Shown: piece by piece, positions 19,898 through 25,371 of the stretch
How the letters are laid out: every line of letters starts with the position of its first letter
How positions within the stretch are numbered: position 1 is the first letter of the stretch
Virus genome (UHGV): UHGV-1451962
DNA: 64,000 nt
DNA from: a virus
Strand: one strand, 5' to 3'
Program-made: the position numbers and the translations under genes
Notes under the pieces: generated by a model
Seen by the model: only the letters and a program-made list of their open reading frames with translations
What the model was told of the DNA's origin: nothing
Databases searched by the model: none

Positions 19898-21091
19898 ATG
19901 GCAGGAGAAACAGCTTATTGTGAAAAATGTGGTCGCACTATGTCAGTTAATCAATTTTATTTGTCTAAAAATCTTGAAAAATATCCTAATGGTGGTGTGA
20001 TGAGACAGTGCAAAAAATGTCTCACCATGCACGTAGATAACTGGGATCCAGAAACTTTCAAGTGGATTTTACAAGAAATTGATGTACCATACATTGAAGA
20101 TGAGTGGAATAAAGTATTAGAAAAATATAGTGCAGACCCCAAAAAACTTACAGGTACTACTATTCTTGGGCGCTATCTTTCTAAAATGAAGTTAAAGCAA
20201 TGGAAAAATTATCATTGGAAAGATACAGAAAAACTCCAAGAAGAAAATCGGCAAGAAAAAATTAAAATAATGCAAGCTGCGGGTTTATCAGGAGAAGAGA
20301 TTGAAAAAGAACTTAAAGTAGATCATCGACCAGATAAACCGGATCTTACACGAATTTTAGATTCTAAAGGTACTGACGTTTCTTCTTCTGATTTTCCTGA
20401 AGAAGAAGATGACTTTTCTGATAAACTTACTGAGGAAGATAAAACTTATTTGCGATTAAAATGGGGTAGAGGTTATCAACCAGAAGAATGGATTAAAATG
20501 GAACAGTTGTATGAAGATATGATGGCTTCTTATGATATTCAAAGTGCTGGTCATAAAGATACTCTTATTATGATTTGCAAAGCATCTTTGAAAGCTAATC
20601 AACTTATTGATGTTAATGATGTTGAAGGATTTCAAAAAATATCTAAAGTATATGATTCACTTATGAAGAGTGGTCGTTTTACTGCTGCTCAGAATAAAGA
20701 AGCAGATGGAGAATTTATTGATTCAATCGGTGAGTTAGTTAGTATTTGTGAAAAAGATGGTTTTATTCCTAAGTATTATGTAGATCAGCCAAAAGATAAA
20801 GTTGATAGAACATTAGAAGATATTCAAAATTATACAAGACGTTTAGTTTTGGAAGAAACTAATTTGGGTAATATGATTGAAGCTTCTATGAAAGAAATTC
20901 AAAGAGATAAAGAAAGAGAAGCATTAGCAAATACAGATGAAGTAGATTCAGAAGAAACTTTTGAAAAACAATTATTCAAAGATGAAGCTGAACCTATTAA
21001 AGATGAAGATTATTTAGAATTTAAGAAAATGGAACAAAAACAGCAAGAAGAGGATGATGCTTTCTATGCTTCTCTTGAGAGAGGAGAATGA
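19898..21091 (+). CDS. hypothetical zinc-ribbon protein (terminase small subunit not excluded)
   Basis: RBS 'aagaaaagaggt' then ATG 19898 (MAGETAYCEKCG...); CxxC...CxxC; acidic C-terminal half; lies just upstream of the terminase gene. Confidence 0.45.
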   Translation: MAGETAYCEKCGRTMSVNQFYLSKNLEKYPNGGVMRQCKKCLTMHVDNWDPETFKWILQEIDVPYIEDEWNKVLEKYSADPKKLTGTTILGRYLSKMKLKQWKNYHWKDTEKLQEENRQEKIKIMQAAGLSGEEIEKELKVDHRPDKPDLTRILDSKGTDVSSSDFPEEEDDFSDKLTEEDKTYLRLKWGRGYQPEEWIKMEQLYEDMMASYDIQSAGHKDTLIMICKASLKANQLIDVNDVEGFQKISKVYDSLMKSGRFTAAQNKEADGEFIDSIGELVSICEKDGFIPKYYVDQPKDKVDRTLEDIQNYTRRLVLEETNLGNMIEASMKEIQRDKEREALANTDEVDSEETFEKQLFKDEAEPIKDEDYLEFKKMEQKQQEEDDAFYASLERGE

Positions 21092-21720
21092 TAATGGCAT
21101 TACAACAATTATTAGAATTATCTAATAATAGAAAGAAAATAGGTATTTCAGAAGAGAGAATAAGAGCTATCTTGCCTGTTGCTCGTCAATATGTTTCTTT
21201 TTGGCGAGAATATCCAGATTTATTTGTGGATTTTTTACAGGATGGAGGAGATAGTTCTCGTAAAAAACAGCTAGAATTTTACTACTATCAGCGTGTCTTC
21301 CTTAGGGCTGCGATGCGCTACAAATATGTATACATGACCTTTCCTCGAGCGTACAGTAAATCTTTCCTTTCAATTTTGGTTTTGATGTGTCGTTGTGTAC
21401 TTTATCCTGGTGCAAAATTGTTTGTTACTTCTGGCGGTAAAGAGCAGGCAGCTACAATTGTGAAAGAAAAGGTAGAAGAAATATGTAAACTTGTACCAGC
21501 CTTTAAAAAAGAAATTGATTGGGGAAGAGGACAAACTCAAATTAGTAAAGATTATTGTATATATAAATTTAAAAGTGGTAGTTATTTTGATATTGTAGCA
21601 GCTAAAGAAAGTTCACGTGGTAAACGTAGACATGGTGGACTAGTTGAGGAATGCGTTGGTGTAGATGGAACTATATTAAATGAAGTGATAATCCCTAGTT
21701 CGTGGGGCCTTATAGCGTGA
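21088..21720 (+). CDS. terL: terminase large subunit, N-terminal (ATPase) portion; 3' end is an exon/intron junction, not a true stop
   Basis: 210-aa ORF with deviant Walker-A-like 'PRAYSKS'; partner ORF 23961..24971 carries the nuclease-domain motifs; RBS 'gagaggagaa' precedes ATG 21088 and 21094. Confidence 0.5.
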   Translation: MIMALQQLLELSNNRKKIGISEERIRAILPVARQYVSFWREYPDLFVDFLQDGGDSSRKKQLEFYYYQRVFLRAAMRYKYVYMTFPRAYSKSFLSILVLMCRCVLYPGAKLFVTSGGKEQAATIVKEKVEEICKLVPAFKKEIDWGRGQTQISKDYCIYKFKSGSYFDIVAAKESSRGKRRHGGLVEECVGVDGTILNEVIIPSSWGLIA

Positions 21721-21997
21721 GCTATAAGTGAAAATGACGTGAACCTAAGAAAAAAGGGTGTGAGATTTTTATCTTGCTAACGGTAAAGAGTCAAGAATAC
21801 CGTGCTAAGCCTAGAAATAGGAAAGTGTAGAGACTAGAACTGATGAGTGTAAGTTCGTAGAATGGAGTTTATCACCATTCGAAGCGCGTCACAACTAATT
21901 TTTTTGGACAAAAGTATATATATAGCATTTTATTTAAAAATAAATTATACATAGAAGGAATTATTCCTAAAATGAATATAAAAGGAGTTTAGATAAA

Positions 21998-22717
21998 ATG
22001 TGGAAAAAAATCATTTTAAATAATACAATTACTGATTATAGCGTATCAACAGAAGGAGAAGTAAAAAAAGATACTACAAATTACTTTTTATCTCAAAGTA
22101 TACAACAAGATTATAAATTTGTTTCTTTATTAATAAATGGACAAGTGAAAAGAATGCGAGTACATAGATTAGTAGCTATGACTTTTATTCCAAATCCAGA
22201 AAATAAACCTTATGTAAATCATATTAATGGAGATAAAGGAGATAATAATGTTGAAAATCTTGAATGGGTGACGCCTTCTGAAAATACTATTCATGCAGTA
22301 AAAACTGGTTTAATGTCAAATGGAAGAAAAAGACCTGTTATTCAATATAATTTAAATGGAGAAAAAATGGCTACTTTTGAAAGTGCTTCTGAAGCTGCTA
22401 GGCAAACAGGTGGTTCTCAAAGTAAAATTACTATGTGTTGTAGAAGGCAAAGAGAAAGTGCTAATGATTATCAATGGAGATATTATGATGATTTACAAGA
22501 CGTCCAAAAAATTGAAAAAAAATTTATAACTGGAAAAAAAGTTGCACAGTGTGATGAAGAAGGAAATATATTAAATATATATCCTAGTTATAAAAAAGCT
22601 GCTGAAGCAGTTAATGGAACTTCATCTGCAATTAGTCGTGTGTGTAGTGGAACGAATGTTAGACATAAAGGTTATAAATGGAAATTAGTTGAAGAGATAG
22701 TCCAAGAAAATATATAA
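21998..22717 (+). CDS. HNH homing endonuclease
   Basis: '[24 protein letters not shown]' HNH motif; 239 aa; embedded between the terL pieces. Confidence 0.75.
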
Positions 22718-22886
22718 ATATTTTTTGACAATGAACGTTTCACGTAGATGCATGGATGGTTCTGTCCACCCTGAAGAGTCCTTAAACAAGTCACAAATAT
22801 ACGTTAATTTTTTGGTCAAAAAAGTTACAAGAGTATAAGCTAATTTTCATTATAAATAGATGATATTAATGAAAAGAGGTTTAATT

Positions 22887-23669
22887 ATGTATTTTATTTA
22901 TAAAATTGAAAATTTAAAAAATCATAAAAAGTATATAGGTTTAACAAATAATATTGCTAGATGCAGAGCGAGACATTTTACTGATTTAAAAGGTGGATAT
23001 CACGATAATAAATTTTTACAAAAAGAATTTATTAGAGATGGAATTGAGAATTTTTCATTTGAGATTGTTTATTCTGGAGATATTTCTTATGAAGAGATAA
23101 GTGAAAAAGAAAGATATTATATAAAGGAATATGATTCATATTTTAATGGATATAATCAAAATGAAGGTGGTAATTTTGGCCCTTCAAATGGTGGAAGTCA
23201 TTTAACTAAATCTGATATTTTTAATATATTAGCGGCTTTAGAGTTTATGTCTAGGCCAGGACAAATTTTAGCTAATATGTATGATATTTCTAGAACTACT
23301 GTTAGTAGAATTAAACAAGGCGTTAATCATATTGAATTTAAAAATGAATATGATAATTTACCTTTAAATCAGCGCAAAGAAATTTATAGAATTTTTTGTG
23401 AAAGTTCTAATTTTTATGAAAATAAAGTAAATTCTACAATTATAAAGAGTAAACGTAAATTGAATGAAAAACAAGTTCATTTAATTCTTTTAAATGAAGA
23501 ATTAGGAAGAATTAGACCTATTACTGATTTAACTTATAAATTTAAACTTAATAGTGATAATACTATTTATACTATTTTAAGAAAAAAAAGTTATAAAGAT
23601 TATATATATAGTTACTCTAAATTAACTCAAGAACAAAAAAATGAATTAGCGTCGGCATTAAGAAATTAA
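22887..23669 (+). CDS. GIY-YIG homing endonuclease
   Basis: N-terminal 'MYFIYKIENLKNHKKYIGLTNNIARCRARH' GIY-YIG motif; RBS 'aaaagaggt' precedes ATG 22887 (ORF track start 22860). Confidence 0.75.
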   Translation: MYFIYKIENLKNHKKYIGLTNNIARCRARHFTDLKGGYHDNKFLQKEFIRDGIENFSFEIVYSGDISYEEISEKERYYIKEYDSYFNGYNQNEGGNFGPSNGGSHLTKSDIFNILAALEFMSRPGQILANMYDISRTTVSRIKQGVNHIEFKNEYDNLPLNQRKEIYRIFCESSNFYENKVNSTIIKSKRKLNEKQVHLILLNEELGRIRPITDLTYKFKLNSDNTIYTILRKKSYKDYIYSYSKLTQEQKNELASALRN

Positions 23670-23960
23670 TGTTTGTAATCTTTTGAATTGCGGGGAAGCC
23701 TGAGATGGTAATCCGCAGCTAAGCCTTTTAAAAAAGGAAAGTTCAACGACTAGTTCTTAGGAACGTAGAGAATAAGCGTTTGATTCTCGAAGCGGAAGAC
23801 CCCTAACGTAAAGCCGAGGGTGAAGAGATAGTCTATTCTGCATAGAATATGAATATGTAGCAGTTCATTAAAGAACGTATATAATGTAGCGAATTATATA
23901 GAATAAATAAGAACAACAGCCGGTTGGAAGAATACATTTCCATACGAAAAACTTATTACT

Positions 23961-24971
23961 TTGTTAGTACGTATGGTAGTTGATCCAGGGCAAAGTATTG
24001 TTATGGGTGGTTCTTGGCGTATACCTGTGTTAGTCGGATTATTAGATTCTGATTTCTTAATTAATTTAAAGCGTGACCCCACTTTTAATGAAGCTTCTTT
24101 TGGCCGAGAGTACGAGTCGATCTGGAGTGGAACTGTCGAAGATGCTTTCTTTAATAGTGAAGTTTTTGATAGAAATAGAAAAATTCAAAAGCCAGAATAT
24201 GAATATTCTGGAAGATCGTCTGCTTCTTCTTATTATGTAGTTTCTGTGGACGTTGGACGTAAAGGTTGCGATACAGTTGCCAGCATTTTAAAGGTTATCC
24301 CGCAACCACAAGGCCCATCTATTAAATCATTAGTTAATATAGTAACTATGGAAGATGAACATTTTGAAAATCAAGCTATTATGTTGAAAAAATTATATTA
24401 TAAATATAAAGCAAAACGCTTGGTGATAGATGCGAATGGCTTAGGCATTGGACTTATTGATTATATGATAAAAGTTCAAGAAGATGATAAAACAGGTGAA
24501 TATTATCCACCTTTTGGTGTTTATAATGATGAAGAAAATTATTATAAAAAATTTAGAACTGATGATACAGAAGATGAAGCAATGTATTTGATTAAAGCAA
24601 ATGCTACAATTAACACTGAAGCTCATGCTAATCTGCAAACACAATTAAATGCTGGTAAAGTAAAATTTTTACTTGATGAACGTGAAGCAATGATGAAATT
24701 AATGGAAACTAAATTGGGCCAAGGTATGACTCCACAAGAAAGGTCAAAATATGTTATTCCATTTAGTCTAACTTCTATACTTAAAGAAGAGTTAACTAAC
24801 CTTCGAGAAGAAAACGAAGGTGTTAATATTATTCTCAAACAAGTAAATAGAAAAATTAAAAAAGATAAAGTATCTTCTTTAGAATATGGTTTATACTACA
24901 TTAAACAAGAGGAAGATAATAGACGTAAACGCAAACATTTTAAGGTAGCAGATTTGATGTTTATGAACTAA
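23961..24971 (+). CDS. terL: terminase large subunit, C-terminal (nuclease) portion; 5' boundary approximate
   Basis: RNaseH-like nuclease motifs 'YVVSVDVGRKGCDT' and 'LVIDANGLGIGLIDYM'; no ATG start or RBS. Confidence 0.55.
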   Translation: MLVRMVVDPGQSIVMGGSWRIPVLVGLLDSDFLINLKRDPTFNEASFGREYESIWSGTVEDAFFNSEVFDRNRKIQKPEYEYSGRSSASSYYVVSVDVGRKGCDTVASILKVIPQPQGPSIKSLVNIVTMEDEHFENQAIMLKKLYYKYKAKRLVIDANGLGIGLIDYMIKVQEDDKTGEYYPPFGVYNDEENYYKKFRTDDTEDEAMYLIKANATINTEAHANLQTQLNAGKVKFLLDEREAMMKLMETKLGQGMTPQERSKYVIPFSLTSILKEELTNLREENEGVNIILKQVNRKIKKDKVSSLEYGLYYIKQEEDNRRKRKHFKVADLMFMN

Positions 24972-25014: not shown

Positions 25015-25371
25015 ATGAGGGCTTCAAGAGCAGAAATTAAAATTGAAGAAATTTTAAGAAATAATAATCTTAATTTTAAAGAAGAATACGAGTTTCCTGG
25101 TTTAGCAAGTTCAAATGGAAGACCTCTTAGATTTGATTTTGCTGTTTTTGATGATGATGATAATTTAGATTTTTTAATTGAATATCAAGGAAAACAGCAT
25201 TACATGCCAGTTAGTAAATTTGGTGGTAGTAGAGGATTACATCAACAGAATTATAATGATAAGCAAAAGCGTAGATTTTGTGCATTAAAAAATATAAATT
25301 TGATAGAAATTCCCTATACCGAAGAAAATTTAATCAGTTATGATTATATTATGAAAAAAGCTGGATATTAA
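25015..25371 (+). CDS. small putative endonuclease (PD-(D/E)xK-like) or free-standing homing-endonuclease-like protein
   Basis: 118 aa, 'RFDFAVFDDDDNLDFLIEYQGKQHY'; sits between terL and portal, a common homing-endonuclease site; weak call. Confidence 0.3.
   Translation: MRASRAEIKIEEILRNNNLNFKEEYEFPGLASSNGRPLRFDFAVFDDDDNLDFLIEYQGKQHYMPVSKFGGSRGLHQQNYNDKQKRRFCALKNINLIEIPYTEENLISYDYIMKKAGY

Follow-up and report, generated by a model that had tools for sequence, protein, structure and literature searches.

Two mobile group I introns bearing homing endonuclease genes very probably divide a large-terminase gene of an SPbeta-like gut phage into three exons

In the window, the whole 64,000-nt stretch of phage DNA analysed here, two pieces of an apparent large-terminase gene (terL) lie apart with two endonuclease genes between them, raising the question of how one complete TerL protein could be made from this locus. 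The preliminary description had read ORF 21088-21720 as the N-terminal part of a terminase and ORF 23961-24971 as its C-terminal part lacking a start codon, and had proposed that the gene is interrupted by one or two group I introns encoding homing endonucleases, perhaps leaving a short exon in the middle. Each element that it listed was found at the coordinates it gave. We put the probability at about 90% that terL consists of three exons split by two mobile group I introns, each with its own homing endonuclease gene. All features described below lie on the plus strand.

The phage is an SPbeta-like gut phage of ~137 kb. The match of ORF 21088-21720 to YonF-type large terminases covered their N-terminal part and ended at residue 203, in line with the preliminary reading; homologs of the split gene carry the GenBank names TerL/YonF, and the gene order is YonG-like, terL, portal (phrog_2739), YonD-like and YonB-like. 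Pfam, NCBIfam and PDB sequence searches with TerL gave no match, and its AF2 model was poor (pLDDT 47), for which terminase nuclease domains and RuvC were the closest folds, none of them at E <= 0.001. The homologs' GenBank names, the synteny and the weak fold matches suggest that the protein is TerL.

Exon 1 (E1, 21088-21696) has 203 codons, encodes the N-terminal part of the ATPase up to ...NEVIIP and has T as its last base. Its boundary lies at residue 203, where tblastn matches to TerL/YonF homologs end; the final seven codons and the stop of ORF 21088-21720 are intron 1 sequence. A second ATG at 21094 may be an alternative to the start at 21088. The suspected middle exon is present as exon 2 (E2, 22728-22804; 77 nt, ...TMNVSRRCMDGSVHPEESLNKSQIYV), which aligns to a conserved segment found in all uninterrupted homologs compared. 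Exon 3 (E3, 23912-24971) comprises 352 codons and a stop, running from ATPase motif III (TTAG) onward and including the nuclease domain; its homologous reading frame opens at 23912, upstream of ORF 23961-24971. The predicted ligated junctions are ...ATAATCCCT joined to ACAATGAAC... for E1 and E2, and ...ATATACGT joined to AACAACAGC... for E2 and E3. Joining all three exons gave an in-frame TerL of 581 aa that aligned gap-free over both junctions with uninterrupted TerL homologs (identity 61%, 48% and 48%), indicating that the pieces are contiguous parts of one TerL.

Intron-less relatives are consistent with this product. The uninterrupted proteins P0001-P0007 are 99-100% identical to the predicted spliced TerL, and the intron-less alleles of two near-identical phages (L250 and L251) have a CDS of 1746 nt, the same length as spliced terL, with flanks 94-98% identical to those of the intron-bearing window and L263. 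Junction 1 is the same as in the intron-less allele, and at junction 2 there is a single, synonymous base difference; over the whole spliced gene 60 of 62 differences are synonymous, including six of six in E2, and a cluster of substitutions beside the intron 2 site was not significant (p about 0.14). The alleles show intron presence/absence polymorphism at the same site in close relatives, as expected of a mobile intron, and purifying selection on the spliced terL frame.

It could be argued that the endonuclease genes are free-standing insertions and that terL is a fractured gene whose separately translated products assemble with no RNA splicing involved, since public gene calls list fragments of 208 aa and 332 aa as separate genes and PHROGs has distinct N-terminal and C-terminal families. 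We regard this as extremely improbable, given that E2 and E3 have neither a start codon nor an RBS, that the 26 conserved residues of E2 would go missing, that structured ribozyme cores with canonical splice-site features lie beside each endonuclease gene, and that the boundaries match the intron-less allele to the base.

Intron 1 (21697-22727; 1031 nt) is subgroup IA-like with P7.1/P7.2 and ends in G22727 (omega-G). Its 5' core (21697-21901), based on a structure model, the MFE fold and RNAalifold, carries the internal guide sequence (IGS) TGGGG (21703-07), P2 (21709-28), P3 (5' strand 21736-41, 3' strand 21885-90), two extra hairpins (21744-57 and 21760-77), P4 (21780-803), P6 (21804-26), the 5' strand of P7 (21832-36), P7.1 (21837-56), P7.2 (21860-80) and the 5' strand of P8 (21892-901). 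The 3' core (22682-22727) comprises the 3' strand of P8 (22682-91), J8/7 (22692-97), the 3' strand of P7, TAGTC (22698-702), and P9 with the terminal G (22703-27); here GAAGAGATAGTC is identical in the same element of intron 2. The MFE fold of the 5' core had z = -2.46, and RNAalifold independently found the intron 1 helices. In the family model of 70 pairs, 96.3% of cells were paired versus 38-45% in slid controls, with 37 compensatory pairs and with covariation of P8 and P9; 0 of 500 shuffles and none of the slid controls came near. At the 5' splice site the U21696.G21704 wobble was invariant in seven of seven sequences, while exon position -4 covaried with the guide sequence by a C-G to G-C swap. 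Two oddities relative to the RF00028 consensus were observed, namely two covarying hairpins between P3 and P4, inserted ahead of J3/4, and an almost absent P5.

Scanning with RF00028 detected intron 2 but failed for intron 1, which scored 11.4 bits on contiguous window DNA (21686-21945), below the RF00028 gathering cut-off of 50 bits. This low score arises because the model cannot bridge the 780 nt to the 3' core, which is contained in the end of the HNH ORF; comparative analysis was therefore needed. In phage EF1, the ORF-less intron 1 homolog that occupies the same site reached 52.1 bits, above the gathering score, and intron 1 belongs to a family of introns specific for this site, some of which lack an ORF.

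Intron 2 (22805-23911; 1107 nt) is also subgroup IA-like and ends in G23911 (omega-G). Its ribozyme core (23644-23911) was defined by the RF00028 match and a covariation model. The 3' strand of P1 with the IGS, AATTAGCGT (23644-52), pairs with 22801-09 across the GIY-YIG ORF, and is followed by P2 (23656-71), P3 (23679-85 with 23793-99), P4-P5 (23688-718), P6 (23724-37), P7 (23748-52 with 23829-33), P7.1 (23753-64), P7.2 (23768-88), P8 (23801-20), P9 (23834-49), P9.1 (23851-66) and P9.2 (23878-900). The match to RF00028 covered the full model (positions 1-253) at 80.6 bits (E = 2.8e-20), and an evalue scan of the whole window with RF00028 gave 76.9 bits. A default Rfam scan at gathering cut-offs over the whole window gave no match at all and missed intron 2, so the check as suggested could give a false negative. 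The intron 2 family model, which includes the P1 spanning the GIY-YIG ORF, has 73 pairs with 95.8% of cells paired versus 38-46% in controls, and 32 compensatory pairs. The U22804.G23649 wobble at the 5' splice site was invariant, and the guide pairing covaried at exon positions -2 (G-C or A-U) and -4 (A-U or U-A). The P10 pairing, read from the sequence, was weak.

In both introns, P7.1 and P7.2 between P7 and P3', the hallmark of subgroup IA, covary in their families, and the P1-P9 structure including the P3/P7 pseudoknot is backed by covariation; P7 itself is invariant in both families and therefore uninformative in this respect. Structure, covariation and the intron-less alleles together indicate two group I introns. 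Neither outcome that the preliminary description named as refuting its proposal occurred, since a group I model match was obtained and both terL pieces aligned to one and the same TerL. Like group I introns, inteins and group II introns are found within conserved phage genes, and either may bring along HNH or other endonucleases (cf. PMC2677866, PMC12350094). An intein is refuted by the stop that the terL frame meets 24 nt into intron 1 and by endonuclease ORFs that are separate, not fused in frame and have their own RBS, a group II intron has against it that neither a reverse transcriptase nor a group II Rfam match was found, and the positive group I match with covariation speaks against both, leaving them a negligible probability.

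The two endonuclease genes were confirmed by Pfam. The HNH gene (21998-22717; 239 aa, I-HmuI-like) lies in the P8 loop of intron 1 behind the Shine-Dalgarno sequence AAGGAG. Its protein matched HNH_3 at 39.8 bits (cut-off 24.8), NUMOD1 at 42.3 (22.8) and I-HmuI_NUMOD-like at 31.7 (27), as well as I-HmuI in PDB 1U3E (E = 3e-12), and orthologs of 246 aa occupy the same place in three relatives (L163, L189 and L193). The last ~35 nt of the ORF encode P8', J8/7, P7' and part of P9, and the conserved C-terminus ...WKxVxxIVQ is co-encoded with these elements. Its domains and intron location mark the protein as a putative homing endonuclease of the I-HmuI type. The GIY-YIG gene (22887-23669; 260 aa, I-TevI-like) lies in the P1 loop of intron 2, has a Shine-Dalgarno sequence, and overlaps at its 3' end the P1 3' strand/IGS and P2. 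Its protein matched PF01541 (34.8 bits, cut-off 22.6), the I-TevI catalytic domain (PDB 1LN0/1MK0, E = 5e-11) and PHROG homing endonuclease families; an ortholog in L129 has the same Met start, and one of the 25 members of its 90% cluster is named 'group I intron endonuclease' by IMG. No solved relative was found for the C-terminal DNA-binding region. The catalytic domain and the intron location suggest a homing endonuclease of the I-TevI type. The segments flanking the endonuclease genes, described earlier as GC-rich, indeed had GC contents of 0.40 and 0.37, compared with 0.29 and 0.23 in the ORFs and 0.32 in the window. A U-run/GGNC/A-run motif stands upstream of both endonuclease genes, which are otherwise unrelated.

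Both endonuclease ORFs overlap core helices, and translation could therefore interfere with folding. This overlap, together with the failure of RF00028 to pick up intron 1, would fit one or both introns being decayed, non-splicing remnants, which would make terL a pseudogene and the phage or its assembly defective. We consider this very improbable: in the window copies of both introns no core helix is broken and all fit the covariation models, the exon differences are almost all synonymous, the same intron-bearing arrangement recurs on other ~137-kb contigs, and terL is essential for packaging in tailed phages.

We propose that terL with both introns would be transcribed as one pre-mRNA, in which each intron would adopt the ribozyme fold of subgroup IA, with helices P1-P9, P7.1 and P7.2. 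Exogenous guanosine would attack after the exon-terminal U, held in a U.G wobble with the internal guide sequence, and the freed exon would then attack after the terminal G of the intron; removal of both introns would join E1, E2 and E3 into an mRNA for the 581-aa TerL. The endonucleases would be made from their own ribosome-binding sites, the HNH enzyme from L8 of intron 1 and the GIY-YIG enzyme from L1 of intron 2. If an intron-less relative infected the same cell, each enzyme would cleave or nick the unoccupied site, and repair templated by the genome with the intron would insert a copy of it (homing). The best explanation is that the two introns are independent of each other as mobile elements; we infer catalytic splicing, the activity and specificity of the endonucleases, and homing in this phage.

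A variant of this scheme is that splicing needs a protein cofactor or mainly skips E2, so that the introns would regulate the amount of functional TerL. Some introns of Bastillevirinae are spliced only in vivo, and one terL there shows dominant skipping of an internal exon (PMC11878797); in the present locus the P5 of intron 1 is minimal and both ORFs overlap core elements. We think this variant unlikely, given that nothing in the sequence requires a cofactor and that joining E1 to E3 shifts the frame and reaches a stop at residue 226, so no active TerL would result from it.

At the same sites, relatives range from an intact endonuclease ORF through a broken one (L237) and a 15-codon relic (L149) to ORF-less introns (L215, EF1-A and L097), covering every stage of the homing-endonuclease life cycle; ORF-less homologs of intron 2 occur at its terL site in L097, L086 and L103. 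Related TerL genes have ~10 recurring interruption positions, with up to four or five in one gene. Taken jointly, one may tentatively speculate, with considerable doubt, that the YonF-type terL of SPbeta-like gut phages is an unusually dense group I intron hotspot, that the intron 1 lineage is an undescribed structural variant of subgroup IA, and that the U-run/GGNC/A-run motif might be a common expression signal or cassette boundary.

For annotation, public gene calls and GenBank records (L263, phage EF1) show this arrangement as two or three fragments labelled 'hypothetical protein' where a single essential TerL belongs, and PHROGs splits this TerL family into N-terminal and C-terminal halves; the exact junctions correct this. 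As to method, introns with an endonuclease ORF in P8 are invisible to RF00028; given that the default scan also missed an 80-bit intron, phage introns are probably under-counted. Moreover, the pair of alleles with and without introns in near-identical phages, with two endonuclease classes 77 nt apart, offers a ready system for work on homing, on competition between introns and on marker exclusion in gut phages.

The selfish element type is well documented and familiar, and the underlying phenomenon is well known. The terL genes of Bastillevirinae Bacillus phages contain two or three IA-type group I introns, mostly with the ribozyme interrupted by a loop encoding an HNH or GIY-YIG homing nuclease, as well as small internal exons, and their splicing was demonstrated both in vitro and in vivo (Nucleic Acids Res 2025, PMC11878797). 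Given that TerL genes with several group I introns have been published, the kind of element described here is already known. Our locus shares with them the split terL, the IA introns, the HNH/GIY-YIG genes in loops and, as predicted here, a small internal exon, but the TerL family differs (phrog_675 there; YonF-type, phrog_15503/24618 and no Pfam match here), as do the lineage, here an uncultured ~137-kb SPbeta-like gut siphophage, and the insertion sites. The terL of Enterococcus phages EF1/EF5 (MF001358, MF001361) is of the same TerL family (48% identity) and has an ORF-less intron homologous to intron 1 at its exact site, a second IA intron four codons from the intron 2 site (RF00028 87.9 bits) and a third intron with an HNH gene; unlike intron 1 and intron 2, their two counterparts in EF1 have no endonuclease genes, and the GenBank records of EF1/EF5 give the pieces as hypothetical proteins with no spliced terL. 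Intron 1 resembles the I-HmuI system of phage SPO1 in having an HNH + NUMOD endonuclease in a subgroup IA phage intron, whereas the host gene is DNA polymerase there and terL here, and here the 3' end of the ORF also serves as P8'-J8/7-P7'-P9. Similarly, intron 2 resembles the td intron of phage T4 with I-TevI, in which a GIY-YIG catalytic domain is encoded within an IA-type phage intron with P7.1 and P7.2; in T4 the td ORF loops out from the P6 region, whereas the ORF here lies in the P1 loop, with its end overlapping the guide sequence and P2.

The terL region contains four ORFs on the + strand, at 21088-21720, 21998-22717, 22860/22887-23669 and 23961-24971. The first ORF matched the N-terminal ~200 residues of proteins named 'terminase large subunit' or YonF from large siphophages of Enterococcus, Geobacillus, Bacillus, Brevibacillus and Lactococcus, and the homology ended at residue 203. 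An HNH_3, NUMOD1 and I-HmuI-NUMOD protein is encoded by the second ORF, and a GIY-YIG protein by the third; GC content was 0.37-0.40 in the non-coding segments versus 0.23-0.29 in these endonuclease ORFs. The four ORFs, the two endonuclease genes and their GC-richer flanks had been accurately described from the sequence alone. By comparison with an uninterrupted 591-aa homolog (MT836163, L002), ~26 residues were found to be absent between the two terL ORFs; these are encoded at 22728-22804, where the short middle exon that had been suspected between the endonuclease genes is indeed present. The model thus comprises E1 (21088-21696), intron 1 (21697-22727), the mini-exon E2 (22728-22804), intron 2 (22805-23911) and E3 (23912-24971), all on the + strand. 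Joining E1, E2 and E3 gave an in-frame product of 581 aa with the predicted ligated exon junctions ATAATCCCT/ACAATGAAC and ATATACGT/AACAACAGC. The predicted spliced TerL aligned with three uninterrupted homologs with no gaps over both junctions (identities of 61%, 48% and 48%), the pieces matching as contiguous parts of one TerL. Skipping of E2 would shift the frame and lead to a stop at residue 226, and therefore both introns must come out precisely.

A protein search of public assemblies, in which the family numbers ~7,800 members, identified uninterrupted proteins of 579-581 aa that were 99-100% identical to the predicted spliced TerL. Two intron-less loci that encode such proteins, L250 and L251 from two sequencing runs, belong to the same phage type as the window, with 94-98% identical flanks, an unchanged gene order and a terL CDS of exactly 1746 nt. 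Junction 1 matched these alleles base for base and junction 2 differed by one synonymous base, which shows that the predicted junctions are right, the intron-less alleles being the decisive test. Moving the intron 2 junction by 1 nt would give the intron-less sequence exactly; this placement was rejected, as it would make A the last base of the intron and have the splice-site U pairing with A rather than G. The junctions of the homologs accord with the chosen position. Between the spliced terL and the intron-less allele, 60 of the 62 differences, including all six in the mini-exon, were synonymous in the spliced frame, indicating purifying selection on the interrupted gene. A single phage lineage is thus polymorphic for the presence of the introns. 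Other ~137-kb contigs share the intron-bearing arrangement, annotated there as separate genes. In a search for a co-conversion signature, the densest substitution cluster adjoined the intron 2 site, without reaching significance (p about 0.14).

The proposed Rfam check was borne out for intron 2 in a permissive scan, but not in the default one or for intron 1. In the permissive scan, the group I intron model RF00028 gave a full-length match at 23618-23854 (80.6 bits, E = 2.8e-20; gathering score 50), and a match of 76.9 bits was obtained on the whole window. The default gathering scan of the full window (1-64000) returned no match despite this 80-bit intron, which is a false negative of the filter and is relevant to pipeline design. 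Homologs of intron 2 at the same terL position are of two kinds. Those without an ORF (L097, L086 and L103) are 263 nt long with a simple P1 hairpin, ACAU/UAG-CAA-UUAGUGU, and those with one (L129, L125 and L093) carry the GIY-YIG cassette precisely in the loop of that hairpin; accordingly, P1 in the window was assigned to 22801-22809 with 23644-23652, spanning the ORF. In a six-sequence alignment, a model of 73 pairs, covering P1-P9.2 and the P7 pseudoknot, had 95.8% of cells paired, compared with 38-46% in slid controls, and 32 compensatory pairs. The splice-site U.G was invariant, with covariation between the guide sequence and exon positions -2 and -4. The TTAG of terminase motif III begins directly 3' of this intron.

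For intron 1, RF00028 scored an unusable 11.4 bits on the 5' part alone, because the 3' core sits inside the HNH ORF, in its final ~35 nt, and comparative analysis was used instead. P8' (22682-91) lies inside the end of the ORF, followed by J8/7 and P7' (22691-22702, GAAGAGATAGTC), identical to intron 2, and P9 extends to G22727; the HNH ORF thus sits in L8. Viral contigs searched by pattern and by BLAST yielded an intron 1 family at exactly the same terL codon position, with an intact HNH ORF in L163, L189 and L193, a broken ORF in L237, and no ORF in L215 and Enterococcus phage EF1. With RF00028, this EF1 intron scored 52.1 bits, above the gathering score. The P8 loop of another member, L149 (~12373-12335), holds a 15-codon relic ORF, MITWKIVEDIVQEDI and a stop, in which the N-terminus of the HNH endonuclease runs directly into its C-terminus and the stretch doubling as P8'-P7' is retained; this relic is an intermediate stage of endonuclease gene decay. 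From the ORF-trimmed alignment, RNAalifold independently recovered P1, P2, P3, P4, P6, P7.1, P7.2, P8 and P9, together with two additional hairpins that lie between P3 and P4. These hairpins, at 21744-21777 between P3 and J3/4 (helices 4-5), covary across the family, coincide with a nearly absent P5 and lie outside the RF00028 consensus. For P3, GACGUG/CGCGUC, with covariation at 4 of 7 pairs, was chosen and the alternative CUUGCU/AGCGCG rejected. With P7 added, the model of 70 pairs had 96.3% of cells paired (38-45% in controls) and 37 compensatory pairs; none of 500 shuffles reached the observed values. U21696, the last base of the 5' exon, forms an invariant pair with G21704. By their predicted P7.1 and P7.2, both introns are assigned to subgroup IA, with no finer class.

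Among solved structures, the only relative of the HNH protein was I-HmuI (1U3E, E = 3e-12); the GIY-YIG protein matched the I-TevI catalytic domain (E = 5e-11). Both genes are preceded by Shine-Dalgarno sequences and overlap ribozyme helices at their 3' ends, a known variant (PMC3984707). The TTTTTGGNCAAAA motif lies upstream of both genes; TTTTTGG[A/T/G]CAAAA (a U-run, GGNC and an A-run) has its only exact matches in the window at 21901-21913 and 22809-22821, 75-95 nt upstream of these two unrelated ORFs. It also occurs in L129, L093 and L237, including the ORF-deleted intron of L237, and is possibly a hairpin or expression signal. A scan for sigma-70 promoters and terminators gave nothing above shuffle expectation, and no tRNA genes were found in the window (1-64000).

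Searches with TerL of Pfam, NCBIfam and PDB (phmmer and profiles) found nothing. AlphaFold2, run on a 27-sequence alignment of 72-100% identity, gave a poor model (mean pLDDT 47), whose best Foldseek matches were terminase nuclease domains (G20c, T4 and RB49 gp17, SPP1, Sf6, HCMV) and RuvC; none was significant, and they are only suggestive. The probable TerL identity comes from GenBank homolog names, the Walker-type and motif III (TTAG) sequences recognisable by direct reading of the protein, and synteny, the gene order being YonG-like, terL, a 118-aa ORF, portal (phrog_2739), YonD-like and YonB-like. The 118-aa ORF (25015-25371) matches only the C-terminal part of the 'homing endonuclease' families phrog_9084 and phrog_559 and is kept in the intron-less L002, L250 and L251; it could represent an independent nuclease-like domain, or what is left of a free-standing endonuclease.

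Most close IMG/VR relatives (75 of 80) are uninterrupted. Over all loci fetched, frame interruptions of terL fall at ~10 recurring positions (residues ~88, ~120, 183/184, 203/204, 229/230, ~234, ~240, ~296, 347/348 and 406), only some of them verified as group I introns, with up to 4-5 in single genes. Interrupted relatives include L086/L103, L215, L237, L093, L129, L076 and L080-L083, and L237 and L093 carry a further intron-1-type core ~10 codons past the intron 2 site. The relatives derive from metagenomes of animal guts, and their binning, with Bacillota and other MAGs, is inconsistent. In-frame TAG codons were observed within otherwise conserved terL exons of L215 and L080, and these phages may read TAG as a sense codon.

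Taken together, the RF00028 match, the covariation and the intron-less alleles establish that group I introns with homing endonuclease genes split terL, as the preliminary description had correctly interpreted. Splicing and homing are predicted here to follow the standard mobile group I intron mechanism. Searched by megablast against deposited phages, the region gave only a 99-nt HNH match, and the intron 1 family occurs among them only in EF1/EF5, unannotated. The EF1 terL (L132, MF001358, 1432-4540), and likewise that of EF5, has three group I introns, scoring 52.1, 87.9 and 39.4+22.6 bits with RF00028 in EF1, where GenBank annotates the gene as three hypothetical proteins and an HNH gene. 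Terminases are recognised intron targets (PMC3984707), and two or three IA-type introns with endonuclease-bearing loops and small internal exons were reported in 2025 in Bastillevirinae terL, with splicing demonstrated (PMC11878797). The terL described here belongs to a different TerL family and a different phage lineage, and it therefore adds to a known kind of multi-intron terL.
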